DNA from: Escherichia coli O157:H7
Lineage (GTDB): Bacteria; Pseudomonadota; Gammaproteobacteria; Enterobacterales; Enterobacteriaceae
Assembly (NCBI RefSeq): GCF_013167455.1
Contig: NZ_CP038330.1
Length of the DNA: 64,000 bases
Reading direction: 5' to 3' (one strand)
Shown one piece after another: positions 4,619 to 64,000 of the stretch. Position 1 is the stretch's first letter; each line of letters starts with the position of its first letter. A program made the position numbers and the translations under genes. The notes below the pieces were generated by a model that saw only the letters and a list, made by a program, of their open reading frames with translations, had not been told where the DNA came from and ran no database searches.

Positions 4619-5236
4619 TCAGCGAACCATGTATCCAGCTTCTTTTGCCGCAGCATCAAGCTCGGAGGAAAAGTTAACGTCGGACTTTTCTGCCGCGTTA
4701 TAGAGGGCTCCACACTTGGGCCATGAGCGCCCTACCAGTTTCATCGCCAACGCATCCGCCAGCATTTCTCGGATCTGTGTTTCAGCCTCACCAAAATCGG
4801 CTAGAGTTTCGTCTATGCCCGACTCTTCCATCAGCTCGATGAGCTGAGGTTGTTTGAGCCAGACGCCTGTTTGCATTTCCAACTGGTCTCTTGCATCTGC
4901 CACCAATTGGCGTTCAAGGGTGACGCCATTTACGGTCTTAACAAATTGCTTTGGCTGACGCTTTACCTTTTTTGGTCTGGACACATCAGAGATAACCGTC
5001 ACCGGCTTCCCACGCAGTTCACGCGGCAACGGTCCACTTAGCCCCAGAACTAAGCGACGAGCGTACTCATGCTCGTATGGTTTCAACCCTCGACCTTCAC
5101 GGTACATCTCAGTATCCACCAGCAGATCACCGCGCAGCCTCGCGTTTTTCCGCACTTGTTCGGACAAGACCGATTTGCCCTTCCCGCTGGCTCCCATTAC
5201 GAGCGAGTGAGATTCTACTTTGTTATCAAAAAACAT
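4619..5236 (-). CDS. P-loop NTPase / kinase-like protein
   Basis: Walker A motif GASGKGKS near N-terminus followed by DLLVD. Confidence 0.55.
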   Translation of the reverse strand: MFFDNKVESHSLVMGASGKGKSVLSEQVRKNARLRGDLLVDTEMYREGRGLKPYEHEYARRLVLGLSGPLPRELRGKPVTVISDVSRPKKVKRQPKQFVKTVNGVTLERQLVADARDQLEMQTGVWLKQPQLIELMEESGIDETLADFGEAETQIREMLADALAMKLVGRSWPKCGALYNAAEKSDVNFSSELDAAAKEAGYMVR

Positions 5237-8711: not shown

Positions 8712-9411
8712 GGGCTCTTCTCTCCTCATACTCTTCGATGCGCTCTTTCAGACGCTGAACCACTGGTGCGAGCTCAGGGATAGCTTCCGCTTCCTCAAGC
8801 GTGTATCGCTTGTCTTCCTGGTAATCGACTATTTGAGGAGGCCTTGGCTGTTTAGGGAACTCAGCAAAGTCATTCAGCGACATCGAGGTAGGAAGTCCTC
8901 CTTCAATCTCACCTTTTTCGTTGAGTGACTGAGTGACGATAAGCTGTGTTCCGCCCACCTCGGTATCAAAGCGGTCATCAAAGCGCTCACCGATAGTCCA
9001 GCCGCCACGGCCAAGAACACAGGTCGTACTCATACGTAGGCGATTGAATGCTTTAGCGTCATCCCAGTTCAAAGGATTTTCATCCATGAGGAAAAAAGGC
9101 GCTTCGTCCCGAACGAACACCTTGGACTTGGCGTTATCGAAGATCGGCCCAAACACCCCCTGCTGGAGGTATGGTTCGACTTTCTCTGCAAGATCCTGGT
9201 GCCCTTGAGAACGCAGCGCCTCATAGAGCTGGGTGATTGTTTGTTTGCCGGTGTCCGGAAGGCAGGACAATACTGTCTGCTTTTCCTCGTCACTCAGGCT
9301 TACCATTCTGGACAAAAAGCTGACTACCAGCTCGTTGTGCCCATCGACCGTTTCAATGTTGAGCTTGTTCTCGTCCATCTTCTTCCTCAGTAATCGGTTC
9401 GATAAATTCAA
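8704..9411 (-). CDS. hypothetical protein
   Basis: ORF in operon; true start may be the internal Met at 9378. Confidence 0.4.
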   Translation of the reverse strand: MNLSNRLLRKKMDENKLNIETVDGHNELVVSFLSRMVSLSDEEKQTVLSCLPDTGKQTITQLYEALRSQGHQDLAEKVEPYLQQGVFGPIFDNAKSKVFVRDEAPFFLMDENPLNWDDAKAFNRLRMSTTCVLGRGGWTIGERFDDRFDTEVGGTQLIVTQSLNEKGEIEGGLPTSMSLNDFAEFPKQPRPPQIVDYQEDKRYTLEEAEAIPELAPVVQRLKERIEEYEERRAHD

Positions 9412-10102: not shown

Positions 10103-10119
10103 GCGCCCATTTTGGGCAG
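10103..10119. promoter_or_regulatory. candidate activator box GCGCCCATTTTGGGCAG
   Basis: CC-W5-GGGC inverted-repeat motif ~90-105 bp upstream of the operon start at 10013; similar boxes at 400-416, 36339-36353, 50344-50366. Confidence 0.35.
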
Positions 10120-10194: not shown

Positions 10195-10330
10195 TTTTGT
10201 TTCTTGGTATCGTTTTATTGTCTCTTGATATTATTTTATGATGCTGTAATAATCATAAATAAGGGCCGCATCGCTCTTCGACCTTCGTTGCAGCCCTTAC
10301 AACACAATCAAGCAATTAAGGAGCTTTGTT

Positions 10331-14030: not shown

Positions 14031-14336
14031 TTATCCCACTCTATTGTAAACAAGACATTTTTATCTTTTATATTCAATGGCTTATTTTCCTGCTAATTGG
14101 TAATACCATGAAAAATACCATGCTCAGAAAAGGCTTAACAATATTTTGAAAAATTGCCTACTGAGCGCTGCCGCACAGCTCCATAGGCCGCTTTCCTGGC
14201 TTTGCTTCCAGATGTATGCTATTCTGCTCCTGCAGCTAATGGATCACCGCAAACAGGTTACTCGCCTGGGGATTCCCTTTCGACCCGAGCATCCGTATGA
14301 GACTCATGCTCGATTATTATTATTATAGAAGCCCCC

Positions 14337-16016: not shown

Positions 16017-16852
16017 TGTTCATGCCGCCTGTTTTTCCTGCTCATTGGCACGTTTCGCAACCTGTTCTCATTGCGGACACCTTTTCCAGCCTCGTTTGGA
16101 AAGTTTCATTGCCAGACGGGACTCCTGCAATCGTCAAGGGATTGAAACCTATAGAAGACATTGCTGATGAACTGCGCGGGGCCGACTATCTGGTATGGCG
16201 CAATGGGAGGGGAGCAGTCCGGTTGCTCGGTCGTGAGAACAATCTGATGTTGCTCGAATATGCCGGGGAGCGAATGCTCTCTCACATCGTTGCCGAGCAC
16301 GGCGACTACCAGGCGACCGAAATTGCAGCGGAACTAATGGCGAAGCTGTATGCCGCATCTGAGGAACCCCTGCCTTCTGCCCTTCTCCCGATCCGGGATC
16401 GCTTTGCAGCTTTGTTTCAGCGGGCGCGCGATGATCAAAACGCAGGTTGTCAAACTGACTACGTCCACGCGGCGATTATAGCCGATCAAATGATGAGCAA
16501 TGCCTCGGAACTGCGTGGGCTACATGGCGATCTGCATCATGAAAACATCATGTTCTCCAGTCGCGGCTGGCTGGTGATAGATCCCGTCGGTCTGGTCGGT
16601 GAAGTGGGCTTTGGCGCCGCCAATATGTTCTACGATCCGGCTGACAGAGACGACCTTTGTCTCGATCCTAGACGCATTGCACAGATGGCGGACGCATTCT
16701 CTCGTGCGCTGGACGTCGATCCGCGTCGCCTGCTCGACCAGGCGTACGCTTATGGGTGCCTTTCCGCAGCTTGGAACGCGGATGGAGAAGAGGAGCAACG
16801 CGATCTAGCTATCGCGGCCGCGATCAAGCAGGTGCGACAGACGTCATACTAG
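16016..16852 (+). CDS. strB: aminoglycoside 6-phosphotransferase APH(6)-Id
   Basis: 278 aa starting MFMPPVFPAHWHVSQ at the internal ATG overlapping the strA stop. Confidence 0.97.
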   Translation: MFMPPVFPAHWHVSQPVLIADTFSSLVWKVSLPDGTPAIVKGLKPIEDIADELRGADYLVWRNGRGAVRLLGRENNLMLLEYAGERMLSHIVAEHGDYQATEIAAELMAKLYAASEEPLPSALLPIRDRFAALFQRARDDQNAGCQTDYVHAAIIADQMMSNASELRGLHGDLHHENIMFSSRGWLVIDPVGLVGEVGFGAANMFYDPADRDDLCLDPRRIAQMADAFSRALDVDPRRLLDQAYAYGCLSAAWNADGEEEQRDLAIAAAIKQVRQTSY

Positions 16853-36420: not shown

Positions 36421-39400
36421 ATGAGATCGAGACCTTCCCTTTTACTGATGCGAAACCTGCGGTCATTGGCCGTTGTGGTGCTCGCAACTTTGCCATGCGT
36501 TGCTTTTGCACAATGGCGGGTTGTAGCCGTGAGCACCGAAGTAGACAAAATGCGCTTCAACACCATCATAGACGCGCATTCCTTCATGAAGAATTATCGC
36601 TCTGGTGAGGAGCAAGGGAAGGGAACGCCAGTTGGGGATGCGCTTTATCCGGTTGCCAGTTATGGTGATGGCCGTTATGTCTCCAGGATCTGTTTTAAGT
36701 ATCTAGGTGCTACTGGCGATTATGACCCCACTACCTGCACTGGCGACCCAGCTACGGTCTACTGGCGCTCAACCTATGTTCTGCCGGGTGAGATGGATAA
36801 AACACCGTTCCTGGACAGGGATCTCGGCTTACCAACAACGACCATGTGTGTAGGGAACCCTATCCATCTTGGCACCGGCAACAAGTTCCAGGCTGAACTG
36901 GATTATCAAAGCGGAGGCTCCGACCCTTTCACATTCACCAGATACTACAATAGCCACCTTCCTGATGAAGAGCTCGGCGGCTGGCGGCATACCTACTCGC
37001 GGAGCGTCGAGGTCAACGCCTCGAAGTACGGTGAGAACATGGTTGTCCTGCACCGGCCAGAAGGGCAACAACTCGCGTTCTACAACTCGTCCTCTGTCTG
37101 GGTGCCAACATGGAAAACCGATGATACCTTGACGAAGGATGCTACCGGCTGGCGCTACACTCAATCTGACGGGGTAGTCGAGGCCTATGATGAAACCGGA
37201 CGACTGACCGGCATCGAGAAGCCCAACGGCAATCACATCACCCTGAGCTATCTGAACGGAGAGCTATCCTCGATCACTGACGGCTTTGGCCGCACCATCC
37301 AGTTCCAGTATCAAGATGGCCGCATGGTCAGTGTCACCGATCCTGCTGGTGGCAGTATTCAGTACCAGTACAACAGCGCTGGCAAGCTGGCGGAAGTGAT
37401 CTACCAGGACAATACGAGCCGCAGCTATCTCTACGATGACCCGAATGCACCGGGTTTGCTCTCTGGGCTGGTGGACGAGAACGGCAACCGTTTCGCCACA
37501 TGGGGATATGATACTCAGGGGAGAGCGGTTCTAAGCGAACACGCCGGGGGCGCAGAGAAAACTCAGGTAAGCTACAACGCTGACGGAAGCGTCTCTGTCA
37601 CCAATGCCCTCGGCCACGTTCAGCGATACACCTACAGTCGCCACAATGGGATGCTCAAGCCTGATGTGGTTGAGGGTGCGCCGTGTACCGGCTTTGTGGG
37701 CGGCAAGGAAACCTACGTCTACGACAGCAAAGGCCTCGTCTCCAGCATTACTGACCGCGCTGGGCAGAAGCGCACGTTCACCCATAACGACCGGGGATTG
37801 GAAACCACCCAGATAGACCAGGACGGGGGTAAGGTTACGACCGACTGGCTTCCTTCCAAGTCGCTCCCGGCAAAAATCACAGAACCAACCAGGATCACTG
37901 AGCTCACCTACGACACTCATCTCCGGGTGATAAGCCGCAAGGTCACTGATCGCAGCTCGGGCGCTTCCCGGACATGGACCTACACCTATGCCCCTGTTGG
38001 TACAGGAAAGCCGAGCCTGTTGGCCTCGGTTGATGGTCCGCGCACCGACGTCAGCGATGTTACGACATTTGACTACGATGACCAGGGCAACCTGATCCGG
38101 ACAACGAACGCGCTGGGGCAGGTGACGCAGTTTGGTGACTACGACGCGAACGGTCGCGCCGGGACCATTCAGGGTGTCAATGGTGTAACCCAAACCCTCA
38201 CCTATGACGCCAGAGGAAGACTTGTCAGCTCCACTGGGCCAGAAGGAACCACGGTCTACAACTATGATGCTGTGGGCCTCCTGAGTTCGCTGACCAAGCC
38301 AAATGGTGCAACCGTCAGCTATGAGTACGACGCTGCACATCGGCTGGTGGCGGAAACAGATGCACAGGGCAACCGGCGCGAGCTTGAGCTCAATGACCTC
38401 GGGAACCCAGTAGAAGAGCGACTGCTCGATGCGCTGGGCCAGACCCGTTGGATAGAGCGCCGGATCTTCAACGAAATCGGCTGGCTCTCCAGTGTCTCCG
38501 ACGCCTATAGCAATCAGTCATCGTTTTCCTACGATGTGGTGGCAAACCTGATACAGGAGACCAGTCCCTCTGGTAACACACACTCCTACAAGTACGACGG
38601 CTTCCATCACCGGACACAAACGACCGATCCCCTCGGGAAGGTCACGCAGGTGCTCTACAAGGATACCGGCGATGTTTACCGTGTCTCCGACCCTCGTTCG
38701 CGCCTGACCTACTACAGCTACAACGGCTTTGGCGAAGTGACCCAGGTCCGGAGCCCGGACACCGGCACCACCGACATTACCTATGACGAAGCCGGTAACG
38801 TGGCAACGCGCAAAACGGCCAAGGGGCAAACCACAAGCTACAGCTATGACGCGCTGAACCGGATCATCGAAACCTCCAGCGATGTCGCTGGCGAATCGCC
38901 AATTCTGTACGGGTACGACGAAGCAACCTCACCATACGGCATAGGCCGCTTGACCTCAGTCGATGATGGCAACGGTGTCCGGAGATTTGGCTACACCCCC
39001 GAAGGATGGCTGGCTTACGAAACCTGGGAAACCCACGGGCAGAGCCTGACTACCCAGTACCAATACGATGGTGCAGGCCTCGTCACGAAGATCACGTATC
39101 CCAGTGGCCGTGAGGTCTCCTACACCCGTGACTCAGCCGGTGACGTCATCGAGGTGACAACGACACAAGCAGGCACCACAACAAACCTGGCAAGCCAGAT
39201 TGAGCGAGCGCCCTTTGGCCCCGTCACCAGTATGGTCAGAGGGAACGGCATTTCAGAAAGCCGCACTCTGGATCTCGATTACCGTGTCACCGGCATCGAC
39301 GCTGCTAGGGTGCATTCGCTGGTCTATCGGTACACGCCAGACTCGTTGATTTCAGCCATAGACGACAATCTCAGCTCATCAGTCAATCAGTCACTCGGTT

Positions 39401-40674
39401 ATGACGCGGTTGGCCGCATCACCTCTGCTGAGGGGATCTATGGCGTTTTGGGCTATGGCTATGACGCCACCGGCAACAGGACCTCGATCACGACCGATGG
39501 CCTGAGCCAAAGCTACACCATCAACTACATGAACAACTGGTTGGTGAAGGCCGGGCAAACCTCCAGAAGCTATGACGCCAATGGCAACCTGACGAAGCAG
39601 GGGGCGGATACCTTCACCTATGACAGCCAGAACCGGCTGGTGGCCGCAACGGTCGCGGGAGTGACTGTAAGCTACACATACAACCATCTGGATCAGCGTG
39701 TAACCAAGACCCTAAACGGGCATACCCGGCTGCTGGTTTACGACCTGGCAGGAAACCTCATCGAGGAGCTGGACGCGGCCACTGGAGACGTGCTGGCGGA
39801 GTACATCTGGCTCGATGGGACACCCTTGGGCTTTGTTCAGTCAGGACAGACCTACCAAGTCCACGTCGATCACCTGGGCACCCCGAAGGCACTGACCGAC
39901 GTCAGCGGCCAAGTCGTTTGGAAGGCGAGCTACAGCCCGTTCGGTAAGGCCAGCATCATCATCCAGGGGCCAACCTTCAACCTGCGATTCCCAGGACAGT
40001 ATTACGACGCGGAGACCGGGTTCCACTACAACTGGCGGCGTTACTACGACCCAGCGACCGGGCGGTACATTACCAGCGACCCTCTTGGCCTGATCGATGG
40101 AGTAAACACCTACGGGTATGTGCATGGAAACCCTATGTCCAATACCGACCCGACGGGTGAATTTGCGTTTGTTGGTGCAGGTATTGGAGCTGGGTTGGAG
40201 CTACTTAGCCAACTAATCGAAAATAATGGGAGTTGGAAATGTGTTAGTTGGTCAAAAGTTGGAATCGCCGGAGCGATTGGGGCTATAGGTGGCGGCTGGG
40301 CGTCAGGAGTTTTCAGACATGCCAGCTCCGGTAAATCGTGGTTCAAATTAAGCCAAAAATGGAGCAATGTCTCACCCAGAGTAAGGAAAGTTCAAGGGGT
40401 TCCACGAGGTAATGAGCTTCACCATTGGGCTATTCAGAGAAATGGCAAGTTTGGCAAATATGTTCCTGACTCAATAAAAAACCATCCTTGGAACTTGAAG
40501 TCCATTCCAAGAGATATTCACCAAAACATTCACGGCAATGGACCTACCCCATATAGCGCATTTGGTCGTTGGTGGCACGGGACGCCTGAATGGGCAAAAG
40601 TAGCTCAAGCCTCTCCTGTTAGTGGTGGTTTAGCTGATTCAATAAATGATGAGGGATGCGGTTGTGCAAATTGA
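36421..40674 (+). CDS. rhs: Rhs/YD-repeat polymorphic toxin with Sec signal peptide and C-terminal HNH-like (LHH-type) nuclease domain
   Basis: 1417 aa; signal peptide MRSRPSLLLMRNLRSLAVVVLATLPCVAFA; many YD repeats; Rhs core end DPLGLIDGVNTYGYVHGNPMSNTDPTGE; C-terminal ~170 aa with glycine-zipper segment and ELHHW...HPWN...HQNIHG. Confidence 0.9.
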   Translation: MRSRPSLLLMRNLRSLAVVVLATLPCVAFAQWRVVAVSTEVDKMRFNTIIDAHSFMKNYRSGEEQGKGTPVGDALYPVASYGDGRYVSRICFKYLGATGDYDPTTCTGDPATVYWRSTYVLPGEMDKTPFLDRDLGLPTTTMCVGNPIHLGTGNKFQAELDYQSGGSDPFTFTRYYNSHLPDEELGGWRHTYSRSVEVNASKYGENMVVLHRPEGQQLAFYNSSSVWVPTWKTDDTLTKDATGWRYTQSDGVVEAYDETGRLTGIEKPNGNHITLSYLNGELSSITDGFGRTIQFQYQDGRMVSVTDPAGGSIQYQYNSAGKLAEVIYQDNTSRSYLYDDPNAPGLLSGLVDENGNRFATWGYDTQGRAVLSEHAGGAEKTQVSYNADGSVSVTNALGHVQRYTYSRHNGMLKPDVVEGAPCTGFVGGKETYVYDSKGLVSSITDRAGQKRTFTHNDRGLETTQIDQDGGKVTTDWLPSKSLPAKITEPTRITELTYDTHLRVISRKVTDRSSGASRTWTYTYAPVGTGKPSLLASVDGPRTDVSDVTTFDYDDQGNLIRTTNALGQVTQFGDYDANGRAGTIQGVNGVTQTLTYDARGRLVSSTGPEGTTVYNYDAVGLLSSLTKPNGATVSYEYDAAHRLVAETDAQGNRRELELNDLGNPVEERLLDALGQTRWIERRIFNEIGWLSSVSDAYSNQSSFSYDVVANLIQETSPSGNTHSYKYDGFHHRTQTTDPLGKVTQVLYKDTGDVYRVSDPRSRLTYYSYNGFGEVTQVRSPDTGTTDITYDEAGNVATRKTAKGQTTSYSYDALNRIIETSSDVAGESPILYGYDEATSPYGIGRLTSVDDGNGVRRFGYTPEGWLAYETWETHGQSLTTQYQYDGAGLVTKITYPSGREVSYTRDSAGDVIEVTTTQAGTTTNLASQIERAPFGPVTSMVRGNGISESRTLDLDYRVTGIDAARVHSLVYRYTPDSLISAIDDNLSSSVNQSLGYDAVGRITSAEGIYGVLGYGYDATGNRTSITTDGLSQSYTINYMNNWLVKAGQTSRSYDANGNLTKQGADTFTYDSQNRLVAATVAGVTVSYTYNHLDQRVTKTLNGHTRLLVYDLAGNLIEELDAATGDVLAEYIWLDGTPLGFVQSGQTYQVHVDHLGTPKALTDVSGQVVWKASYSPFGKASIIIQGPTFNLRFPGQYYDAETGFHYNWRRYYDPATGRYITSDPLGLIDGVNTYGYVHGNPMSNTDPTGEFAFVGAGIGAGLELLSQLIENNGSWKCVSWSKVGIAGAIGAIGGGWASGVFRHASSGKSWFKLSQKWSNVSPRVRKVQGVPRGNELHHWAIQRNGKFGKYVPDSIKNHPWNLKSIPRDIHQNIHGNGPTPYSAFGRWWHGTPEWAKVAQASPVSGGLADSINDEGCGCAN

Positions 40675-41086
40675 ATTTCCAGCGCTGCTTGTGAGCAGCA
40701 AGAAAAGGTCGCTCTTCGTAGTGGCATCAGAATCCGAGTTCGGGAAATGTACTATTCAGTCTTTGAGGAACGGTTATTTTGAGCTGATGGACATTTATGA
40801 TTCGGAAGGTCGTCACTACAAAATAGACGAGGTTGCGAGCTACAAGCCGCTAAGTCCATTCTGGTACTGGCCTGTAGAAATTGTGATGTATGGTTCTCGA
40901 CTGTTTAAGGCTAATTTCAATGCTGTTCTTATCTCTAATCTGGATTGCAAGGAGTTAAAATCTGAACTTTGTGATTTGGCTAAAAAGTACAGAAGTAATT
41001 TGGATTCCGGCGTCGGAATTGAAAAGATTATGGAGGAAATGGAGTCTGCCAGAACAATTAAAGAATTGATAAAGGTTTTTGGCTAG
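40646..41086 (+). CDS. putative cognate immunity protein for the Rhs C-terminal toxin (start uncertain)
   Basis: ORF overlapping the rhs stop, typical toxin-immunity arrangement; no known domain recognised. Confidence 0.5.
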   Translation: MMRDAVVQIEFPALLVSSKKRSLFVVASESEFGKCTIQSLRNGYFELMDIYDSEGRHYKIDEVASYKPLSPFWYWPVEIVMYGSRLFKANFNAVLISNLDCKELKSELCDLAKKYRSNLDSGVGIEKIMEEMESARTIKELIKVFG

Positions 41087-41713: not shown

Positions 41714-41742
41714 CAAAAAGGAGCCTAACTGGCTCCTTTTTT
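41714..41742. terminator. bidirectional rho-independent terminator
   Basis: AAAAAGGAGCCTAACTGGCTCCTTTTTT between convergent genes. Confidence 0.65.
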
Positions 41743-42387
41743 AATGGGGATGATGTTACGTTCGTGGACGTTATTTTCACTCGGGATATGTAACGTTGAA
41801 AAAGGCGTACCGACAAGAGAGTGGTCACATAGCTCTCCATAATAGATGAGCGACAAAATCTCTTGCTCGTTGATTTTTCCCACCTTAAAAAGGTAATTGA
41901 TTATTGCTGTATCCAGTAGGTCGTGACACCCATTAAGCAGATCCACGATATTGGCCGCAGCTTCATTTTCCTCTCCGTCATCTCGACCGGCTAATACTGA
42001 TTCAACCCAAGCCTCAAGGCTCGGATGTCCCTCAGCGAGCTCTATTTGACGGCACTCGTTCTCGATCAACCCTGTGATTGCTTCGTTGAGCGTTCCGCCA
42101 TAAGTCGGCATGTTGAGAACAACTCCAAATCCGGGGATTTCTTTTTGGATTGGCTTCGCATCCTTGGGAGCTGATTTCAGCCACAGGAAAAACCAGATCC
42201 CAGAGCTTATGTCTTCCGGCTTGACCTGGTTGGCCGCAAGGAATTTGGAAACCTCGTTACAGATGATGCCATCTGGCGCTGCCATCTCGTAAATACCCGC
42301 CATCAGATCTTCAAGGCTCTTATACATATTATCTCTCGCACCTGTACATGATGTTTTCACTATCGTTGTTAAGCGTTTTTTCAGCAA
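41725..42387 (-). CDS. hypothetical protein (start may be internal Met at 42327)
   Basis: 220-aa ORF; no motif recognised. Confidence 0.45.
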   Translation of the reverse strand: MLKKRLTTIVKTSCTGARDNMYKSLEDLMAGIYEMAAPDGIICNEVSKFLAANQVKPEDISSGIWFFLWLKSAPKDAKPIQKEIPGFGVVLNMPTYGGTLNEAITGLIENECRQIELAEGHPSLEAWVESVLAGRDDGEENEAAANIVDLLNGCHDLLDTAIINYLFKVGKINEQEILSLIYYGELCDHSLVGTPFSTLHIPSENNVHERNIIPIKKGAS

Positions 42388-42433
42388 GTATGTTCCAGCG
42401 AGACATCTTATACCATTCCATCTAAATCTGTAA

Positions 42434-42485
42434 AATTACCGTATTACCGTATTACCGTATTACCGTAATTATGATAATTACGGTA
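42434..42485. repeat. 4x ATTACCGT tandem repeat plus 15-bp palindrome TAATTATGATAATTA
   Basis: In the divergent intergenic region; the same palindrome recurs at 47386-47400. Confidence 0.6.
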
Positions 42486-42601
42486 AATAAATTTAAGTTC
42501 TTCTTGCTGTTGTTCTACTTATTAAAATGTATCTTTGAAAAAGTAGAGTTTTTGGAATAGGATAGGTGGTGCTGAATGCCCACTTTTTACAAGGAGCGCG
42601 A

Positions 42602-42886
42602 CCAGTGATTTTTGATGTAAGAGCGACCTTTGAAGTGGCACTCCAGACGGACACCCACCTGGTACTTATCGATCTGGATCAGGGAGCATCAGTTACGAAC
42701 GATGCTGATGCAGTGATCGCCTGGTTGGCCGCAAACCTCGAAGGTGGAATTGGAAAACGTAAGGTGTACTACCGGGACACCGATGGACGCTTTGATGAGC
42801 TCAAGGTTAATGCCGGTGCTTTTGCCGGATTTGCACCTTGTAGCGAAGGCCAGCAGACCACCTTGGCTGGGATGCTCGGCCAGTAA
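42602..42886 (+). CDS. hypothetical protein
   Basis: GTG at 42602 with AAGGAG 8 bp upstream (track start 42566); first gene of a six-gene same-strand cluster. Confidence 0.4.
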   Translation, partial: PVIFDVRATFEVALQTDTHLVLIDLDQGASVTNDADAVIAWLAANLEGGIGKRKVYYRDTDGRFDELKVNAGAFAGFAPCSEGQQTTLAGMLGQ

Positions 42887-42904
42887 CTTTGTGTGGAGAA
42901 CTCG

Positions 42905-43192
42905 ATGTTAAACAAAAACAAATTTGAGAAAGTTTTAAAGAGAATCCTCGATAAGAACTTTGAGCGCTGCTCTATTTGCAGGAAACCATTCCCTGGACCG
43001 TGCCATACTTTTGCTGGTTTGGATTCGGACAATAAAGTTCAGAACGTAGGTTCTTGCTGTCGGACCAGTATTGTGGACTTGCGGCATGGAGGTGTGTATA
43101 CGACCGCTCCTGTAGATACTCAAGAGGGGCAAAGTCAGGCGCGTGAGCTACTCGCAACACATCCTTGTAAGGGGATGATGGGACATGCTTAG
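42905..43192 (+). CDS. hypothetical Cys-rich protein
   Basis: ATG at 42905 with GGAG RBS; CSICRKPF...GSCCRTS. Confidence 0.4.
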   Translation: MLNKNKFEKVLKRILDKNFERCSICRKPFPGPCHTFAGLDSDNKVQNVGSCCRTSIVDLRHGGVYTTAPVDTQEGQSQARELLATHPCKGMMGHA

Positions 43193-43721
43193 CAAAAAAG
43201 TCTTTTTCATTAGTCAAGCGGAGGCCGAAAGACTGGAGCCGGTTCCCGGTGCGGCCATGATCTCCATAACTGACCCAGACAAGTCCCCTGCCGCTCTCGG
43301 ACAGTGGGGGCAGTTGTACCGCGATAGCTTCTATGACGGCGGCTATTCTGAGAACACCATCCACACGATGAAGGCAGCGTTCCGGATGAATTACGCCTCT
43401 TACATTGACTCATCCCAGGCTGAAAAGCTGTCCACCTTCCTGGATGGATTGGTTGGTAGCGGTATCGATCAGATCTTCGTTCATTGCTATTACGGAGAAT
43501 CCAGAAGTGGCGCGGTAGCGCTGTACCTCCAGAACAAACATGGATTCACTCCGAATAAGCCGATCACCAAGCCCAACCGAACAGTTTACGAATTGCTGTG
43601 CAATCCAACCAAGTTTGAACCACTGATGCAAAGCTACGAAACGCAACATATGGAGGAGGAACTACCTCTTCACCTCAAAATATGGGATTTTCTTCTCGTT
43701 GCGGTCGGGCTTAGGAGGTAA
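43185..43721 (+). CDS. protein-tyrosine / dual-specificity phosphatase-like protein
   Basis: CX5R signature VHCYYGESRSG; stop overlaps the RBS of the integrase gene. Confidence 0.5.
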   Translation: MLSKKVFFISQAEAERLEPVPGAAMISITDPDKSPAALGQWGQLYRDSFYDGGYSENTIHTMKAAFRMNYASYIDSSQAEKLSTFLDGLVGSGIDQIFVHCYYGESRSGAVALYLQNKHGFTPNKPITKPNRTVYELLCNPTKFEPLMQSYETQHMEEELPLHLKIWDFLLVAVGLRR

Positions 43722-43723
43722 CT

Positions 43724-44734
43724 TTGCACGACACAAACAATGACAAGGAAGAGCTAGTTTCACATGCGAAAGTAAATGTTCCGGCAGAACAAAGCATTCG
43801 CGGTGAACTGTTGCCGTCATCGAGCTCGCTCCGGAACATCCAGGACAACCCCGCCGTCGCCTATCTGGTGAGCCTCGGGTCAAAGCGAAGCAGGCAGACC
43901 ATGAGCTCATTCCTCAACATTGTCGCCAAGATGATCGGGTTTCAGAACCTTCGTGACTGTGCATGGAGCTCAATGAGGCGGCACCACATATTGGCGGTGC
44001 TGGAAATGCTGGGGGATGCAGGGAAGGCTCCGGCAACGATCAACACCTACCTGTCAGCGCTCAAAGGGGTGGCTCTTGAAGCCTGGACGATGAAGCAAAT
44101 TGATACGGATAGCTTCCAGCACATTAAGCAAGTCCGTTCAGTACGTGGATCTCGACTTCCTAAAGGGCGGGCACTTGAACGCCATGAGATTCGCAGCCTC
44201 TTTTTCACATGTGAAAGTGATTCAAGCGCCAAAGGGCTTCGGGATGCGGCCATTCTCGGGGTGCTCCTCGGGTGTGGCTTGCGCCGCTCGGAAATCGTTG
44301 CGCTGGACATGGGAAGCATGATCTACAAGGACCGCGCTCTCAAGGTTCTTGGCAAGGGCAACAAAGAGAGAATGGCGTATGTGCCTGGTGGCGCATGGAA
44401 AAGACTGGATAAGTGGGTTGAAGAGGTTCGAGGAACGCATGAAGGGCCTTTATTCCCGAGGATCAGGCGGTTTGATGATGTGACTGGAGAGCGGATGTCG
44501 GATCAGGCCATCTACCACATCTTGGAGACCAGAAGAGTTGAAGCCGGTCTGGAGATGTTTGCGCCCCATGACCTGCGACGCACCTTTGCCTCCTCGATGC
44601 TGGATAACGGTGAGGATATTGTGACCGTGAAGGACGCAATGGGCCACTCAAGCATTGCAACTACCCAGAAATATGACAGACGCGGCGATGAGCGTTTGAA
44701 GAGAGCGAGCCAACGCCTCGATATAGCGGATTAA
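43724..44734 (+). CDS. int: tyrosine site-specific recombinase (phage-integrase family)
   Basis: TTG start with AGGAGG RBS; C-terminal catalytic region HDLRRTFASSML...GHSSIATTQKY; contains a copy of the palindrome TTTCACATGTGAAAG at 44203-44217. Confidence 0.8.
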   Translation: MHDTNNDKEELVSHAKVNVPAEQSIRGELLPSSSSLRNIQDNPAVAYLVSLGSKRSRQTMSSFLNIVAKMIGFQNLRDCAWSSMRRHHILAVLEMLGDAGKAPATINTYLSALKGVALEAWTMKQIDTDSFQHIKQVRSVRGSRLPKGRALERHEIRSLFFTCESDSSAKGLRDAAILGVLLGCGLRRSEIVALDMGSMIYKDRALKVLGKGNKERMAYVPGGAWKRLDKWVEEVRGTHEGPLFPRIRRFDDVTGERMSDQAIYHILETRRVEAGLEMFAPHDLRRTFASSMLDNGEDIVTVKDAMGHSSIATTQKYDRRGDERLKRASQRLDIAD

Positions 44735-44738
44735 CAGC

Positions 44739-45608
44739 ATGAATGATGAAGAACTCGAACTTGCCAGAGCCGAAGCCATGAAAGCCGATAGGTGCTTTTC
44801 AAAAGGACGGCTCAGGGACGAATTTAGGATGAAGCCTAAGCCAGGAGTAGAGCCAGTTTCGTTCTACAAAAACGGGTATGGTGGCCAATTTGGAGTGTAC
44901 CGGATAGCAGATTGCCAACCAATGCGGAGAAGGGGTTGTTCACCGGCATCACAAAAGCAAATAAGGGCGCAATCCATCCTTTCGGTCAAGGCAAGAATGC
45001 GTAGCAACCTGGCAAAGGCCTCTGTCATGGCACAAAGGTGGGTCGCTCTGGAACCTCTGGTTCTCGATACCGAGACGACCGGACTTGGTGAAAGAGACCA
45101 GGTGATCGAGCTGGCTGTTACTGACATCAGAGGCGCGGTTCTCCTCTGCACCAGATTACGGCCAACCGTGGAAATAGACCCTCAGGCAATGGGTGTTCAT
45201 GGCATCACCGAGACTGAGCTGTCGAATGAGCCTACGTGGACTCAAGTTGCGCCAGCTCTCGCCCGGCTTTTGTCGGGCCGTCATCTGGTGATATTTAACT
45301 CCAGTTTCGACAGTAGGATGTTGAGGCAAACAGCCAGTGCATTTGGAGACCAACTCTCTTGGTGGCAAGAGCAGAACTGTCTGTGCGCGATGAAGCTGGC
45401 GGCTGATGCCTTTGGCTCAACCAACCGGCACGGCACAATCTCACTTGCGGATGCCACCTGCGAGGCAGGTGTGAGCTGGAAAGGTCGAGCCCATTCAGCA
45501 GCGACCGACGCTATTGCCACCGCCGACTTGGTGACAGAGATAGCCAAAGTCCAACGTGACCTCGTGGTCCAGCTCCAGGAGCTTCAAAGCAAAGGTAATT
45601 TGGAATGA
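44739..45608 (+). CDS. DEDDh 3'-5' exonuclease (DnaQ-like) with N-terminal extension
   Basis: Exo I motif VLDTETTGL, HLVIFNSSFD, Exo III HSAATDAIATADL. Confidence 0.75.
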   Translation: MNDEELELARAEAMKADRCFSKGRLRDEFRMKPKPGVEPVSFYKNGYGGQFGVYRIADCQPMRRRGCSPASQKQIRAQSILSVKARMRSNLAKASVMAQRWVALEPLVLDTETTGLGERDQVIELAVTDIRGAVLLCTRLRPTVEIDPQAMGVHGITETELSNEPTWTQVAPALARLLSGRHLVIFNSSFDSRMLRQTASAFGDQLSWWQEQNCLCAMKLAADAFGSTNRHGTISLADATCEAGVSWKGRAHSAATDAIATADLVTEIAKVQRDLVVQLQELQSKGNLE

Positions 45609-46096
45609 CAGAACAATCCTACGGCGAAAGTCTCAAATTTTTCTCAGACTGGCAGAAGGACCCCGCGAAACGCACCGGCCTGAATGTGCAACACACGCTA
45701 ACCAGAGGTGAATATCCTACGGTCAGCATCGAGATTGCGCCGATCAGGGCATCGGGGTCCAGCCCAGACTGGAAAAGCAAGATCACGGTGCAGCTCACTC
45801 GCGGCGAACTGACGGCGTTTTGCAGCGTTCTCTTTGGTTTGCGTAGCAAGGCTGAGGGTTCCTATCACGGCGACGCGAAGAATAAGAGCTTTGCGGTTTA
45901 CAACAACGGCAAGGCCGGTGTTGCGATCATCCTTAGTGAGCGAGGAAACCAGCTCCAGAATTTCATCAATGATGACGACCGAATGGAGCTCGCAGTCTTC
46001 GCAGTTCGCCAGCTTTCCAACGCATGGAAAGTTACCCCTTCTGATGCCATCGCGCTGCTACGCCAATCAGCGTGGATGGACCGAAATTTGTCCTAA
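45605..46096 (+). CDS. hypothetical protein (163 aa)
   Basis: Start overlaps the exonuclease stop (ATGA). Confidence 0.45.
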   Translation: MTEQSYGESLKFFSDWQKDPAKRTGLNVQHTLTRGEYPTVSIEIAPIRASGSSPDWKSKITVQLTRGELTAFCSVLFGLRSKAEGSYHGDAKNKSFAVYNNGKAGVAIILSERGNQLQNFINDDDRMELAVFAVRQLSNAWKVTPSDAIALLRQSAWMDRNLS

Positions 46097-46199
46097 TCGA
46101 GCAAATCTAGGCACTCTAAAAGTCGTCCTATAACCACAAAGTTAGACCATCATGCAAAGTGGGGTATAGAGGGTGCCAGCCCCACCCCAGCAGTCCCCC

Positions 46200-46292
46200 T
46201 CAGCCACATTTCTGGCTTGCCCCGCGCTTTTCTTCTTTCTCTCTTTTTCTCTCTTTTTCTCTCTCTTTCTCAATCTAATCTCACACACGAAG
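46200..46292. repeat. polypyrimidine CT-rich tract with TCTCTTTTTC repeats
   Basis: Strand-asymmetric low-complexity tract in an intergenic region. Confidence 0.5.
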
Positions 46293-46422
46293 GTCAAACA
46301 GGGCACCCGCCGACGCGAAGCGGAGGCGTATTCTTGCCCCTCCCCCTCGTTGCATGATGGTCTAAATCTGTCTACTATGTAACCAATGAACTGTTAGAAC
46401 AAACCCACACATAGGCGGCAGC

Positions 46423-47298
46423 ATGGCTAAAAACTTCATATCAGAACAATTCTCGGCCATGTGCCGCGACTTAACGAACCTGTCCTCTCTTATCAAACGA
46501 CTACCGCCACGGTACGCAAAAGTTGCGGCCATCCCTCCTACCGGAAAAGGAATGGAGAACGAGCCCGTCAACAAGATTGTCGTAACTGAACAAACTGGGC
46601 GCGAAGCTCTTGAGCTGGCAGCGCACAGCTACAGAGATCTTCACATCAACCCAGACTATTCGCAGAAGTCTGCCAGGCGCACCGTGGGGGTACTCTGGTT
46701 CTCCCCTTCCAGGATTGGTGTAGCTGACGAAATTGCGGCGACGGTTGAACGCATCAACGCGGCCAAAGCTGGTATCGAGGAGTTCATTATCTCGACGTAC
46801 CCCACCAGGCAAGAGAGGTTTGAAGCACTTCGAGCGGACTGCCCTGGTGTCATGACTCTCCACCTTTACAGACAAATTCGGTGCTATACCAATGGCGACA
46901 TCGACTCTATCCGCTTCACCTGGCAACGGAAGGACTCCTTGAAGAAGCCCGTAAAAGAGGAGCTTTTGCAACGCATCAGAGAGGAGCTGGAGCGATCTGG
47001 GCCAGACTATCAACTTCCCCTGGAGCAGCTTATCCAGAAGATCGCCAGCACCCCGGAGCCTTATCTCCGGGAGCGAAGGGAAGTAAAGGTTCAACCGGTG
47101 GCAAACGTCATGGCCGCAGGGGTACTCAAAACCGTTACCGCGCCAATGCCCCTGATCGTGCTCCAGGATAAGGATGTTCAGCTCAAATTGCTTCGTAACT
47201 TTGACGCCTCAGAACAACGCAAAACTCGATCTGATAAAGCGGCATCGGAAATCCTTGGCACCTTCGGTGGAGTCACTATCGAATCCTTCCCTGGATGA
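46423..47298 (+). CDS. hypothetical protein (291 aa)
   Basis: ORF with AGGCGG RBS; no motif recognised. Confidence 0.5.
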   Translation: MAKNFISEQFSAMCRDLTNLSSLIKRLPPRYAKVAAIPPTGKGMENEPVNKIVVTEQTGREALELAAHSYRDLHINPDYSQKSARRTVGVLWFSPSRIGVADEIAATVERINAAKAGIEEFIISTYPTRQERFEALRADCPGVMTLHLYRQIRCYTNGDIDSIRFTWQRKDSLKKPVKEELLQRIREELERSGPDYQLPLEQLIQKIASTPEPYLRERREVKVQPVANVMAAGVLKTVTAPMPLIVLQDKDVQLKLLRNFDASEQRKTRSDKAASEILGTFGGVTIESFPG

Positions 47299-47385
47299 AT
47301 CAGCGTGACCGCGTAACAAGGCTTTTCCGCAGCCGGAAGGGCTTTGTCCCACACAAACAATTCCAATCGACAGCAGCATGATATA

Positions 47386-47432
47386 TAATTATGATAATTA
47401 CCGTATTATCGTAATTATCGTAATTATCGTAA
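47386..47432. repeat. palindrome TAATTATGATAATTA followed by TCGTAATTA tandem repeats; probable kfrA operator
   Basis: Same 15-bp palindrome as at 42466; ~30-75 bp upstream of the kfrA start. Confidence 0.55.
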
Positions 47433-47459
47433 ACATTACAAATTAAAAGGAACGTTCTC

Positions 47460-58369: not shown

Positions 58370-58939
58370 GCCCTTACGGAACAAGGCGTTTATTGACAAA
58401 GCATTACATAGTTGAACATGTCAAACAAATCGCATACACTATGGAATAGGCCATTGCTAACGCTTTGGTCCCCATCTGCAACACCGCAGAGTTCTCTTTC
58501 TCAAATATCTCTTTCTGTAAACACCATCATCCTTGTGTGGTCGGGATGCGCCTTTGCCTTCCCTGCCCTCCTCAGCTCCTGCTGTATTCGCAATTTCAGC
58601 CCTCGCTGTATCCCTAAAATCACTTATACCTAAACGCTATTTAATATCACAAAATACCGCACTCCCCGTGCGCTATTTCCGCCATTCTTTTGGCGCACTT
58701 TCCATTACTATCGCAAAAATATCCGTATCCCATTGATTACTAAAAGTATTGTAACTTTGTTCCGTCGGTACAAAGTTAAGTGTATGTTTTTAAAGGTTTT
58801 TTATTGTTGACAGCATCATTATTTGGGCTTGTAAAGGCGCAAAATGTGTCAGTTTGTGACAATAGAAGAACTCTAAAAGCGTTCATCGAATAACGCACTT
58901 TTTGTATGGCTAACAACGCAGTTTAAAGGGTGGCAAACA

Positions 58940-59212
58940 ATGGATAAATGCCAATTGATAGACATCCCAAGCGACCCAGAGAAGAAACGTGAGTGGATCA
59001 AGTACAAACTCAAGATCCAGGGGCTTTCTCTGGCCGCATTGGGCAGAAAACACAAAACATCTCGGCAGGTGGTGTCTACGGCACTCTATAAGCCCAGTCC
59101 ACGCTGGGAACATGAGATAGCTACAGCTTTGGGTGTGAAGCCGTCTGAGATTTGGCCGGAGCGGTACGACGAAGAACACGAAATACCCCTCAGACATAAG
59201 GAGGCAAGCTGA
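58940..59212 (+). CDS. Ner/Nlp-family HTH DNA-binding protein (possible Acr1-type repressor)
   Basis: 90 aa; SLAALGRKHKTSRQVVSTALYKPSPRWEHEIATALGVKPSEIWPERY matches the Ner family pattern. Confidence 0.6.
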   Translation: MDKCQLIDIPSDPEKKREWIKYKLKIQGLSLAALGRKHKTSRQVVSTALYKPSPRWEHEIATALGVKPSEIWPERYDEEHEIPLRHKEAS

Positions 59213-61392: not shown

Positions 61393-61686
61393 TCATACGG
61401 AGCCCATCAGTTTTCCTTTAAGTGAATCACGTTGAGAGTTCAGTTTTGCGTCAGTCTGCACTGGCGAATTTTGATGCTGTGCAGGTTGACTCTCTGAACT
61501 CTGTTGCTCAAAAGACCCAATGTTGCCAGAAAATCGAAGAGAATAAAGACCCAATAGAGCAAGGGCGCGGAGCCGATCACTACGCGCCTTATGCTGCATC
61601 TGGGACAGTTCACGATAGAGCTCCGGAAAGGCTTGCTCCGATATGTTCAGATTAGATATTTTTCCATCCCATTTGCTACCAGCCAC
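61393..61686 (-). CDS. putative ParR-like adaptor of the ParM-type partition module
   Basis: 97-aa ORF immediately downstream of the parM-like gene; assignment by position only. Confidence 0.35.
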   Translation of the reverse strand: MAGSKWDGKISNLNISEQAFPELYRELSQMQHKARSDRLRALALLGLYSLRFSGNIGSFEQQSSESQPAQHQNSPVQTDAKLNSQRDSLKGKLMGSV

Positions 61687-61702: not shown

Positions 61703-62686
61703 TCAGCCGCAGAACCAGAAGCCCCTGGCATTGGATGCCACGGATTCGTTGGGCAGTACGATCCTGCTCTTAGGGAAAAGCTCCTTGGCCGCATCTTGGT
61801 AAGCCTCGGCACCGCCGCCAGCCAGCAGAACTACGTCAGCATCCATCCCGTCCTCACGCATTGACTTCCGCATAGGGATCAAGGCGTTTTGAGCGACTTT
61901 GGTTGAGGCTTTCTTGAAGTAGTCTTTGATCGATACCTTTTCACCGTAGAGGAAGATTTCGGCCTTACCGGCACGAATAGCTTTCTCGATCTTTTCGATG
62001 CCAGGGGCACCGCCGTGGTCTTCCTGAATTAGCCGGTCCGTTTCCTGTAGCAACACCGACATCGCCTTGAGGCTGGTGCCAGATGAGTGATAGCGGACCT
62101 CTCCCTCTTCAAGAGCTACCCAGTCTACAGAAAAGAACCCAGGGTCAATTACAACGGTTTTTCCTCCCTGGATAATCTCCAGGAGGTCTTCATCTTTGGT
62201 TGAACTTACAACATCCATGTAAGCACCGGCAGGTTGAGGTACAACCACGACAGACTTAACCGCTACCGATCGTTTTGGCGTGATCTGGTGTTCACCCTCA
62301 AGCCGAGATTTCAACGCCTCTCTGCGCTCTACGTCCATGTACTGACTAACAGGCAGGCCAGTCACCAGCACATCGATCTCCTTCTGCTCGGACATCAGGA
62401 GTGCAGCGTAGAAAAGAGCCTTGTATGGATTGGTCGAAGGATAGTCACCGTGAAGCTCACGCTCCCATCCTTGCAATCGGTCAGGCTCGACGCCTGCAAC
62501 CCATTTCTCTCCATCAATCACAACCTGAATGCAGGTCCCTGCACCGCCAGTTAACTGTTGTGGCATCAGTTCCAATGGACCTGCCCCCACCGGCATGACG
62601 ACTGTGCGAGCTTCCTCACCTTTATACCCCATTGCCATTTTCAGGTTGGAGTAACCAATATCCAAACCCAGAACAAATTGACTCAT
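61703..62686 (-). CDS. ParM/StbA-like actin-type partition ATPase
   Basis: Start MSQFVLGLDIGYSNLK with GGAGGA RBS; actin/Hsp70-fold phosphate-1 motif; VLLAGGGA adenosine motif. Confidence 0.75.
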   Translation of the reverse strand: MSQFVLGLDIGYSNLKMAMGYKGEEARTVVMPVGAGPLELMPQQLTGGAGTCIQVVIDGEKWVAGVEPDRLQGWERELHGDYPSTNPYKALFYAALLMSEQKEIDVLVTGLPVSQYMDVERREALKSRLEGEHQITPKRSVAVKSVVVVPQPAGAYMDVVSSTKDEDLLEIIQGGKTVVIDPGFFSVDWVALEEGEVRYHSSGTSLKAMSVLLQETDRLIQEDHGGAPGIEKIEKAIRAGKAEIFLYGEKVSIKDYFKKASTKVAQNALIPMRKSMREDGMDADVVLLAGGGAEAYQDAAKELFPKSRIVLPNESVASNARGFWFCG

Positions 62687-62696
62687 GAAATCCTCC

Positions 62697-63175
62697 AAAG
62701 ATTGCTTTTAGATTGCTTTTCGATTGCTTGCCGCGTGTTGGATAGAGAATAAGGCTAAAAGCGGGGACAGATGGCCTGTGTAATTGCCCAAAAGGGGCAT
62801 ATAGGTTGCTTTTCGGTGGCTTTTTGATCGTTGAGTAAGGGAACCTATGGGAACGCTGCACGGATAGGCTCAGATAAACAGACCTTACCCTCGCATCGAG
62901 AACCGCTTGCCCTCCAGCATCGAGAGACGGTGGTAAAGAGGCATTTGGAATCTTTGATGCCATATCCAATATATCTGGAATCTTTAAATATAGATTCATA
63001 TGTAAAGAGGCTGTGAAAGAATAAGAGCATCAAGATTCCAGATAGATAGAGGGAAATTTGACAAATTCCAAAGATGGGTTAGCCTAGTGACAGAACTAGA
63101 TTCCAGTATTGGAATAATCAGCTTTAAATTCCAGATAGATAGTTATGTGGATAGGAATTGGATAGGAATTGGGAG
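62697..63175. repeat. centromere-like repeat region upstream of the parM-like gene
   Basis: 3x GATTGCTTTT (62697-62730), 2x GGAATCTTT, 2x ATTCCAGATAGATAG, 2x GGATAGGAATT (63150-63171). Confidence 0.5.
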
Positions 63176-63728: not shown

Positions 63729-64000
63729 ATGACAGCATCTGTAGCGGCCACTGAATTGGCGAAACTGGGGAAATGTGAAGCGATGATCAAGAAAGTCGCC
63801 AGCCATCCTCGCCCTGCCCTGTCAAAGCGCCCACAATCGCCACAGGGGACAGATAGCACCCTTCGGGGTGAGTTCGCTCATTTCCGATATGAAGCGGCAG
63901 CCCTGCGTTTTATGAGCGGCACTGCGGGGGCTAAGCGTCGCATCTACCAGCTAGTGTTTTCAGCGACGGTAGCAGCGGGAGCATTGACAATGCTGGCGGC
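63729..64000 (+). CDS. hypothetical protein, partial; continues beyond window end
   Basis: ATG at 63729 (MTASVAATELAKLGKCEAMIKK...), open to the window end. Confidence 0.35.
   Translation, partial: MTASVAATELAKLGKCEAMIKKVASHPRPALSKRPQSPQGTDSTLRGEFAHFRYEAAALRFMSGTAGAKRRIYQLVFSATVAAGALTMLA

Follow-up and report, generated by a model that had tools for sequence, protein, structure and literature searches.

The window analysed here is a stretch of 64,000 nucleotides (nt) from Escherichia coli O157:H7 (contig NZ_CP038330.1, assembly GCF_013167455.1), and it represents the backbone of an IncC (A/C2) resistance plasmid. Its 6.5-kb segment 42000–48500 is 99.9–100% identical to many IncC plasmids, for example pEC14-1b and pSN254. 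Two arrays of short palindromic repeats, 4.9 kb apart, lie within this segment; we refer to them as site 1 and site 2, and we argue below that they are probably operator arrays of the plasmid protein KfrA. Based on the RefSeq annotation of pSN254 and on the list of open reading frames (ORFs) in the window, the order along the plasmid is Rhs, orf200, site 1, orf93, orf178, a tyrosine recombinase (int), a 3'-5' exonuclease, orf163, a Tus-like protein, site 2, kfrA, orf92, a UvrD-like helicase and traF. Site 1 stands between divergent ORFs and site 2 stands upstream of kfrA, as the initial annotation of this DNA had placed them; the divergent ORFs are orf200 and orf93, and site 2 ends 28 nt before the ATG at 47460 (Table 1).

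Two arrays of one palindromic unit

The initial annotation had drawn attention to a 15-nt palindrome, TAATTATGATAATTA, shared by the two sites and accompanied by short tandem repeats. Exact copies of this 15-mer are indeed present at 42466–42480 and 47386–47400, and the flanking repeats are also there: four copies of ATTACCGT at 42435–42466 beside the first, and three copies of TTATCGTAA at 47406–47432 beside the second, which had been read in another register as about 2.7 copies of TCGTAATTA. Allowing up to 3 mismatches, the 15-mer has 11 matches on the two strands compared to 0.71 expected, and none of 100 shuffles reached 11; outside the two sites, the near-matches fall only at 10247–10261, an unrelated site counted once on each strand. 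The palindrome of site 1 is in fact longer, a perfect 27 nt at 42460–42486 (TTACCGTAATTAT G ATAATTACGGTAA).

The palindrome and the flanking repeats of both sites resolve into a single 9-nt unit, TTAYNRTAA, repeated head to tail. Successive units are spaced by 9 nt, but by 8 nt wherever the T of the next unit stands in for the final A, and the last three units of site 1 make up its perfect 27-nt palindrome. The earlier proposal that these are shared operators stands to the extent that the same kind of putative protein-binding element occurs at both promoter regions, but its division of each site into an operator palindrome and iteron-like auxiliary repeats does not: the arrays are homogeneous rows of 9-nt palindromes, in which the 15-mer is just a pair of neighbouring units, TTATGATAA plus the edges of the units beside it. 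We also rejected the 15-mer as the functional unit, as in IncA-type plasmids and in L003, a divergent A/C plasmid, kfrA is preceded by other TTAYSRTAA units instead.

TTAYNRTAA has 8 exact matches in the window (1.4 expected), 7 of which fall within the two sites. We scanned the window and 107 kb of pEC14-1b, about 170 kb of IncC sequence, for arrays with one mismatch allowed per unit, and found no further run of at least 3 true units in this sequence; the only other cluster of 3 matches, at 14314–14328, is the simple repeat TTATTATTA. A motif search of the kind suggested by the initial annotation therefore places the arrays at only two positions in the sequence covered. In a profile of 47 units pooled from 10 arrays, positions 1–3 (TTA) and 7–8 (TA) are nearly invariant, each conserved in 43–47 of the 47. 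C or T stands at position 4, only C or G at position 5, and G or A at position 6. The last position, 9, has A in 36 units; in the 11 eight-nt units it was filled with the first T of the next unit and so counts as T. Thus the unit is the palindrome TTAYSRTAA. The scan for pairs of units also returned matches to TTACAGTAT(T/C)ATAA; we rejected these as arrays since they are part of a different operator-like inverted repeat, TTTACAGTAT-N9-ATACTGT(G/A)AA. This inverted repeat occurs in two intergenic regions, at 4880–4906 and 16163–16190 in pEC14-1b (L005) and at 5328 and 12636 in the Aeromonas plasmid pAsa4b.

Table 1 Positions of the arrays, predicted promoters and genes in the window
Feature	Position	Strand	Description
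orf200	41725–42327	−	Hypothetical protein; reads away from site 1
Predicted orf200 promoter		−	−35 TTTACA (42434–42429), 18-nt spacer, TAAGAT (42410–42405); −35 abuts the site 1 array
Site 1 array	42436–42486		6 units: TTACCGTA (three copies), TTACCGTAA, TTATGATAA, TTACGGTAA
Conserved block downstream of site 1	42512–42565	+	TCTACTTATTAAAATGTATCTTTGAAAAAGTAGAGTTTTTGGAATAGGATAGG; element separate from the arrays
orf93	42605–42886	+	Hypothetical protein; first gene downstream of site 1
orf178	43185–43721	+	In operon downstream of site 1
int	43724–44734	+	Tyrosine recombinase; in operon orf93-orf178-int
Tus-like protein gene	46423–47298		Just upstream of kfrA; NF002810, E 7e-159
Predicted kfrA promoter	47361–47389	+	−35 TTCCAA (47361–47366), 17-nt spacer, −10 TATAAT (47384–47389)
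Site 2 array	47389–47432		5 units: TTATGATAA, TTACCGTA, TTATCGTAA (three copies)
kfrA	47460–48500	+	346 aa; N-terminal helix-turn-helix head, then long coiled coil
orf92	48500–48778		Small ORF after kfrA

The two arrays differ in how they are placed relative to the predicted promoters. An alignment of five A/C lineages indicates that the predicted kfrA promoter is conserved as TTYCAA-17-TAKAAT. The last T of its −10 hexamer is the first base of the first unit of site 2, and the array spans about −7 to +38 of this promoter. A consensus scan gave an overlapping alternative, TCGACA-17-TATGAT (47367–47395), which is not conserved in IncA or L003; with either prediction, the edge of the −10, the start site and the greater part of the leader fall within the array. 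The hexamers of the predicted orf200 promoter at site 1 are not conserved in the IncA type. The plus strand has a predicted promoter, TTGAAA-17-TAGGAT (42535–42563), whose −35 is about 50 nt downstream of the site 1 array; counted from the predicted start of the orf93-orf178-int operon, this array is about 85–135 nt upstream. The −35 of this promoter is bracketed by an inverted repeat, CTACTT..AAGTAG, that belongs to the conserved block downstream of site 1. The block is nearly invariant in 6 lineages, including IncC, IncA-type, L003, the metagenomic relative L024 and pAsa4b, where it stands without an array, and its core (42514–42554) has short matches of 33–45 nt in many other plasmid records. 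Judged from its sequence, it looks like the operator of yet another regulator and not like an AcaCD box.

Conservation of the arrays and their association with kfrA

Both arrays are kept in IncC plasmids, in pUO-STmRV1, in L003 (about 77% nucleotide identity) and in IncA-type plasmids. They always have at least four units, and among the A/C plasmids examined we saw no array with fewer than four. The substitutions fit the consensus: change is confined to the degenerate positions of the unit, in the midst of flanking DNA that is 15–25% diverged. Such consensus-keeping change amid diverged flanks is what characterises a protein-binding site. Upstream of kfrA, IncC variants with 4, 5 or 6 units are found, and the corresponding arrays read TTATGATAA TTACCGTA TTACCGTAA TTATCATAA in pUO-STmRV1, TTACGATAA TTATCATA TTACGGTAA TTATCGTAA in L003 and TTACGGTAA TTACCGTA TTACGATAA (C/T)TACC(G/A)TAA in the IncA type. 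Site 1 has 4–6 units in most IncC plasmids and 5 in L003 and pUO-STmRV1. In the model plasmid pVCR94 (L030, 296–356) an internal duplication of 26 nt has raised it to 7 units with two copies of TTATGATAA, and in the IncA-type plasmid p39R861-4 it has 4 (TTATCGTA TTACGGTAA TTATGATGA TTACCGTAA). The latter plasmid is rearranged, such that its site 1 region is about 87 kb from kfrA.

The number of units, 4–7 overall, differs between otherwise near-identical plasmids. Searching PLSDB with site 1 gave 28 records with at least 99% identity, a band that includes the 6-unit form of the window, 465 records with 95–99% identity, nearly all of which are 8 nt shorter (5 units) among the matches listed, and 676 records with 90–95% identity, nearly all of which are 16 nt shorter (4 units), again among the matches listed. 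For site 2, the matches listed from the 343 records with at least 99% identity have the length seen in the window, and of those listed from the 624 records with 95–99% identity, most are shorter by one unit, with two longer ones. Site 1 is missing, together with orf200, from at least one IncC plasmid, p3 of Salmonella Heidelberg (L029); at 2800–3010 of this sequence the promoter block of the int operon is kept, and the DNA upstream of it is unrelated and carries PqaA and hydrolase genes.

Arrays of this kind also accompany kfrA outside the A/C group. In pAsa4b, whose KfrA is 51% identical, a single array is found directly upstream of kfrA (TTACGATAA TTACGATAA .. TTACGGTTA TTTACCGTAA TTATGATTA), 40 kb from the int operon; a scan of all 182 kb of this plasmid revealed no array at the orf178-int promoter and no second array anywhere. 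A kfrA remnant from Photorhabdus (70% identical) has TTACCATAA TTATGATAA just upstream. A word-indexed protein search returned almost only fragments of the same protein, and homologues of 40–50% identity were reached by an exhaustive search of representatives. This HMMER search, made with the KfrA head, gave 1370 relatives, and we examined the contigs of eight representatives with 41–50% identity. Related units are present immediately upstream of kfrA in all eight, for example TTATGATAA TTACTGTAA TTATCATA TTATCGTAA TTACGGTAG in L025, TTATCGTAA TTATCGTAA TTATGTAA TTATCATAA in L026, a contig with Rep3 and RepB-primase replication genes, TTATGATAA TTATCGTAA in L022, and CTATCGTAA TACGATAA TTATGGTAA in L028.

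In an automatic scan of nine loci with KfrA proteins 41–70% identical to that of the window, a cluster of units was detected 14–90 nt before the ATG in seven; looser units could be seen by eye in the other two, L021 and L027. Shuffled sequences contain 5.9 two-unit clusters per 75 kb, or about 0.008 per 100 nt, and the association of array and kfrA is therefore not due to chance. The loci examined include the Rep3-type plasmid contig and contigs that share kfrA alone, and their neighbouring genes vary, with orf92-like ORFs, tus-like genes and integrases each missing in several. Across these unrelated backbones, kfrA is the only constant neighbour of the array. Furthermore, L024, which is syntenic with IncC and encodes a KfrA 47% identical to that of the window, also has a 5-unit array just upstream of the int operon, indicating that the second site is older than the A/C group, although it is missing in pAsa4b.

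KfrA and other candidate binders

By sequence, the product of kfrA is a bona fide KfrA. It matches KfrA_N (PF11740) over residues 9–121 (E 8.8e-23) and coiled-coil families over residues 125–340, with weak SMC-like matches as well. An AlphaFold model of residues 1–127, built from a 60-sequence alignment (mean pLDDT 92), has a three-helix head with helices at 8–20, 27–34 and 39–52, followed by a long helix at 66–126. From the residues immediately ahead of the predicted recognition helix through the helix itself, the sequence is KGS(F/Y)TTIST(Y/F)LK(Q/R)W, with only these alternatives in IncC, IncA, L003 and pAsa4b, and it corresponds to the motif with an essential Trp in KfrA of the IncU plasmid RA3. 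All 60 homologues have G37, and at least 90% of them keep S38, T41, I42 and W49. A fold comparison of the model with the Protein Data Bank gave only weak, generic helix-turn-helix and winged-helix matches (E at least 0.08), and a sequence search against solved structures gave no match for KfrA, so that a TubR-like binding mode remains the model of the RA3 authors only. Directly 3' of kfrA, and often overlapping it, is an ORF of about 92–101 residues, seen for example at 9002–9307 in L024, 3665–3964 in L026 and 166631–166924 in pAsa4b. It is present in many but not all of the relatives and has no family match; by analogy with KfrB or KfrC, it might encode a partner of KfrA.

We consider it probable that KfrA binds the arrays, and we are more confident of this for site 2 than for site 1. 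KfrA binding is the best explanation because of the match to the proven operator of RA3 KfrA, which is detailed below. The anatomy of the arrays, their uniqueness on the plasmid, their conservation and their association with kfrA are all observed here, and from them we infer KfrA binding, its stoichiometry and any effect at site 1. We hypothesize that KfrA reads the 9-nt palindrome TTAYSRTAA as a dimer and that such dimers load cooperatively onto 4–7 contiguous units, 9 or 8 bp apart. At site 2, where the array extends from the final base of the −10 across the predicted start site and leader, bound KfrA would block RNA polymerase, and kfrA would thereby be under negative autoregulation. The site 1 array might be a second anchoring or regulatory site for KfrA on the plasmid. 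The initial annotation had suggested KfrA autoregulation through these sites, and this reading is the best supported for the kfrA-proximal site.

Several points weigh against this assignment. The consensus of the unit is unchanged across the clade examined, and thus there is no covariation between protein and site that would pin the binder. Site 1 is dispensable for plasmid survival, since pAsa4b and at least one IncC plasmid (L029) do without it, and it lies outside the predicted core promoter of the plus-strand operon. All the promoters considered here are themselves predicted. A second KfrA site would be without precedent, as the characterised KfrA proteins act at a single locus (RA3, R388). 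Finally, the searchable literature holds no paper with the motif strings or on kfrA regulation or KfrA binding in IncC, though an earlier description within key IncC papers is possible.

The arrays could instead be operators of another plasmid regulator, such as Acr1, the ParR-like protein, the products of orf92 or orf93, or an uncharacterised protein, that co-regulates kfrA and the orf200/int region; we think this unlikely. Ribbon-helix-helix repressors bind contiguous short palindromic units, as MetJ does at its metboxes and omega at its heptads. Contiguous units such as those found here would suit a repressor of this type as well, and several small unannotated ORFs are located nearby. Additional control also has a parallel in IncP plasmids, whose kfrA promoters are under the global regulators KorA and KorB and carry operators for both (PMC7783346). 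However, acr1 and parM are preceded by candidate sites of their own that are unlike TTAYSRTAA. For the same reason, the Ner-like Acr1 and the ribbon-helix-helix or ParR-like proteins, which the initial annotation had listed as possible binders, are unlikely in this role; moreover, the arrays accompany kfrA into backbones where no called gene has a recognisable likeness to ParM or a match to HTH_35, the Pfam family to which a short gene (31 aa) in L020 belongs. The candidate orf93 is not conserved alongside the arrays, being truncated in p39R861-4 and absent from pAsa4b, and arrays persist in both. Similarly, orf92-like ORFs are missing after kfrA in L022, L025 and L027, so that kfrA alone constantly adjoins the array. 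Pfam and NCBIfam searches found zero domains in orf200 and orf93, and there is thus no obvious alternative DNA-binding protein at site 1.

A less likely binder is the Tus-like protein, with the arrays as its Ter sites, or a nucleoid protein of the host (H-NS, Acr2 or IHF) drawn to AT-rich DNA. A tus-like gene does precede kfrA in IncC, pAsa4b, L022 and L024, and the arrays are AT-rich. Ter sites, however, are single, asymmetric and about 23 bp long, unlike the arrays; the Ter consensus (core GTTGTAAC) has 4 matches compared to 3.1 expected, none of them at the arrays, and arrays are present on contigs without a called tus-like (Ter family) gene (L025–L028). As for a nucleoid protein, the strict TTA..TAA with only C or G at the centre suggests instead a dimer that reads a specific sequence.

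Marginally less credible still is that the arrays, and especially the 27-nt palindrome, are sites for a tyrosine recombinase acting in multimer resolution or inversion, with the direct repeats as accessory arm sites. Site 1 and int share an operon region, in which the site is 1.2 kb upstream, and tyrosine recombinase genes are found near kfrA in several loci (L009, L020, L026). Recombination between two sites 4.9 kb apart should, however, delete or invert the interval, whereas in 826 plasmids the 6.5-kb query, which contains this interval, matches over at least 80% of its length at one place. The int operon of pAsa4b has no array, the number of units varies freely, and arrays of 8–9-nt units differ from the usual pair of 11–13-bp arms around a 6–8-bp spacer. 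The least probable of these readings is that the arrays are non-functional, slippage-prone microsatellites or hairpins, alike by chance or gene conversion: unit number does differ between near-identical plasmids, and single-strand folding gives z-scores of only −1.8 and −2.9, but the arrays occupy the same two positions in lineages 15–25% diverged in flanking DNA, stand upstream of kfrA at 41–51% protein identity, change only at degenerate positions and never fall below 4 units. A hairpin or cruciform as such was rejected, since the z-scores are weak and the hairpin is not kept at site 2.

Other classes of plasmid element were also compared with the arrays. Replication iterons, direct repeats of about 17–22 bp by rep, were rejected: the units here are 8–9 nt long and palindromic, and repA, whose first base is base 1138 of pEC14-1b (near window position 64000), is about 16 kb from one array and 21 kb from the other. 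No AcaCD box (core GCCCAAAATGGGC, PMC5058578) was found with up to 3 mismatches within 42300–42600 or 47300–47460, and good boxes are present elsewhere, at 10105, 50349 (traF) and 62786 (parM). A type II partition centromere (parC of ParMR) was likewise rejected, as parM has its own 11-nt repeats and the array scan found no TTAYSRTAA units upstream of it.

The candidate sites of the other regulators are as follows. Upstream of acr1 (58940–59212), which encodes a Ner-like repressor, a near-perfect palindrome of 27 nt, TAACTTTGTTCCG T CGGTACAAAGTTA, is found at 58752–58778, about 160 nt from the gene, and is a candidate Acr1 operator in Pacr1. Immediately upstream of parM/StbA (61703–62686, minus strand), direct repeats of 11 nt, (A/C)GATTGCTTTT, occupy 62697–62730 and 62805–62822, and the sequence makes them a probable parC-like centromere for a small ParR-like ORF (61393–61686). 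The AcaCD-like box at 62786, GCCCAAAAGGGGC, falls between these two groups of repeats. Beyond orf200, positions 36421–41086 are the known rhs locus of IncC plasmids, with the gene of a 1417-aa Rhs/YD-repeat protein that has a variable C-terminal tip and, after it, an overlapping ORF of 146 aa (40646–41086) that probably encodes the Rhs immunity protein.

If KfrA does occupy both arrays, a broader role can be imagined, which we put forward as a tentative and rather doubtful proposal. Beyond repressing its own gene, KfrA of IncA/C plasmids would organise DNA from two sites: its coiled-coil filaments would nucleate on both arrays, 4.9 kb apart, and bridge them, thereby looping out the int-exo-tus segment or forming a scaffold that sets the position of the plasmid. 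This would couple the dosage of kfrA to orf200/int expression and to plasmid stability, with slippage of the unit number between 4 and 7 as a tuning knob. IncC and IncA plasmids are major carriers of multidrug resistance, and the regulation of their maintenance genes is poorly known beyond AcaCD, Acr1 and Acr2. At least four contiguous units of TTAYSRTAA provide a concrete, testable recognition element for IncC/IncA KfrA. This element precedes kfrA across a wide clade (41–100% identity) and on different backbones, and it would be the first predicted DNA code for this branch of the KfrA_N family. A second conserved target, if true, ties KfrA to the region of int and orf200 or to the higher-order organisation of the plasmid, and if KfrA is not the binder, the arrays nonetheless point to an undescribed regulator that has exactly two targets on this plasmid.

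Comparison with characterised KfrA operators

The closest parallel to the arrays is OK, the operator of RA3 KfrA, which consists of five contiguous 9-nt repeats, TGTATTGTA, three pointing one way and two pointing the opposite way, over the −35 and −10 of kfrAp (PMC7783346). Four of these repeats give full binding and repression whatever their orientation, whereas two are insufficient (Lewicka et al. 2021, PMC7783346). The IncC array resembles OK in the length of the repeat, 9 nt, in the contiguity of the repeats, in the floor of about four units and in the overlap with the promoter. Furthermore, in both plasmids the adjacent gene encodes a helix-turn-helix head (GS.TTI...L..W, with the conserved Trp) joined to a coiled coil. 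The two differ in that the RA3 unit is made of two direct TGTA elements and is not a palindrome, whereas the IncC unit is the palindrome TTAYSRTAA. The RA3 site covers both the −35 and the −10, in contrast to the IncC array, which starts at the −10 and runs downstream. IncC also mixes 8- and 9-nt spacing, and it has a second array 4.9 kb away, unlike RA3, whose operator motif is found nowhere else on the plasmid (PMC7783346). In the model of the RA3 authors, which is based on TubR, the KfrA dimer places its two recognition helices in a single major groove (PMC7783346), and a palindromic unit would suit a dimer in one groove.

Negative autoregulation by KfrA has been shown experimentally in RK2, R751, RA3 and R388. 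The KfrA site of RK2 is an imperfect palindrome of 24 nt (PMC7783346). In R751 the site overlaps the −10 and has been described as an extended inverted repeat or an iterated motif, and the operator DNA nucleates KfrA filaments (PMC7821693). KfrA of the IncW plasmid R388 controls only its own promoter, in a simple negative feedback loop (PMC3937220). No second KfrA site has been reported for IncP-1 (RK2, R751) or IncW (R388), in contrast to the second array of IncC. Outside the KfrA family, the arrays are similar to TubR-tubC and to the arrays of ribbon-helix-helix proteins (omega heptads, MetJ metboxes, ParR-parC), in which short units are placed head to tail, each probably for one dimer, and a filament forms on the DNA. 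KfrA has no sequence similarity and no significant fold similarity to the proteins of those systems, and the ParM system of this plasmid has different 11-nt iterons.

Compared with the known KfrA operators as a class, the array at kfrA overlaps the core promoter, here a predicted one, as OK does, and it is built of several short units; every A/C lineage has 4–6 of them, each 9 or 8 nt long, upstream of kfrA. A single site per plasmid is a trait of the known members (RA3, R388), not strictly part of the definition, and here the arrays depart from them, with a second array in IncC, IncA-type plasmids, L003 and L024. The arrays are thus best explained as an undescribed member of this known operator type, whose variant feature is a second conserved site.

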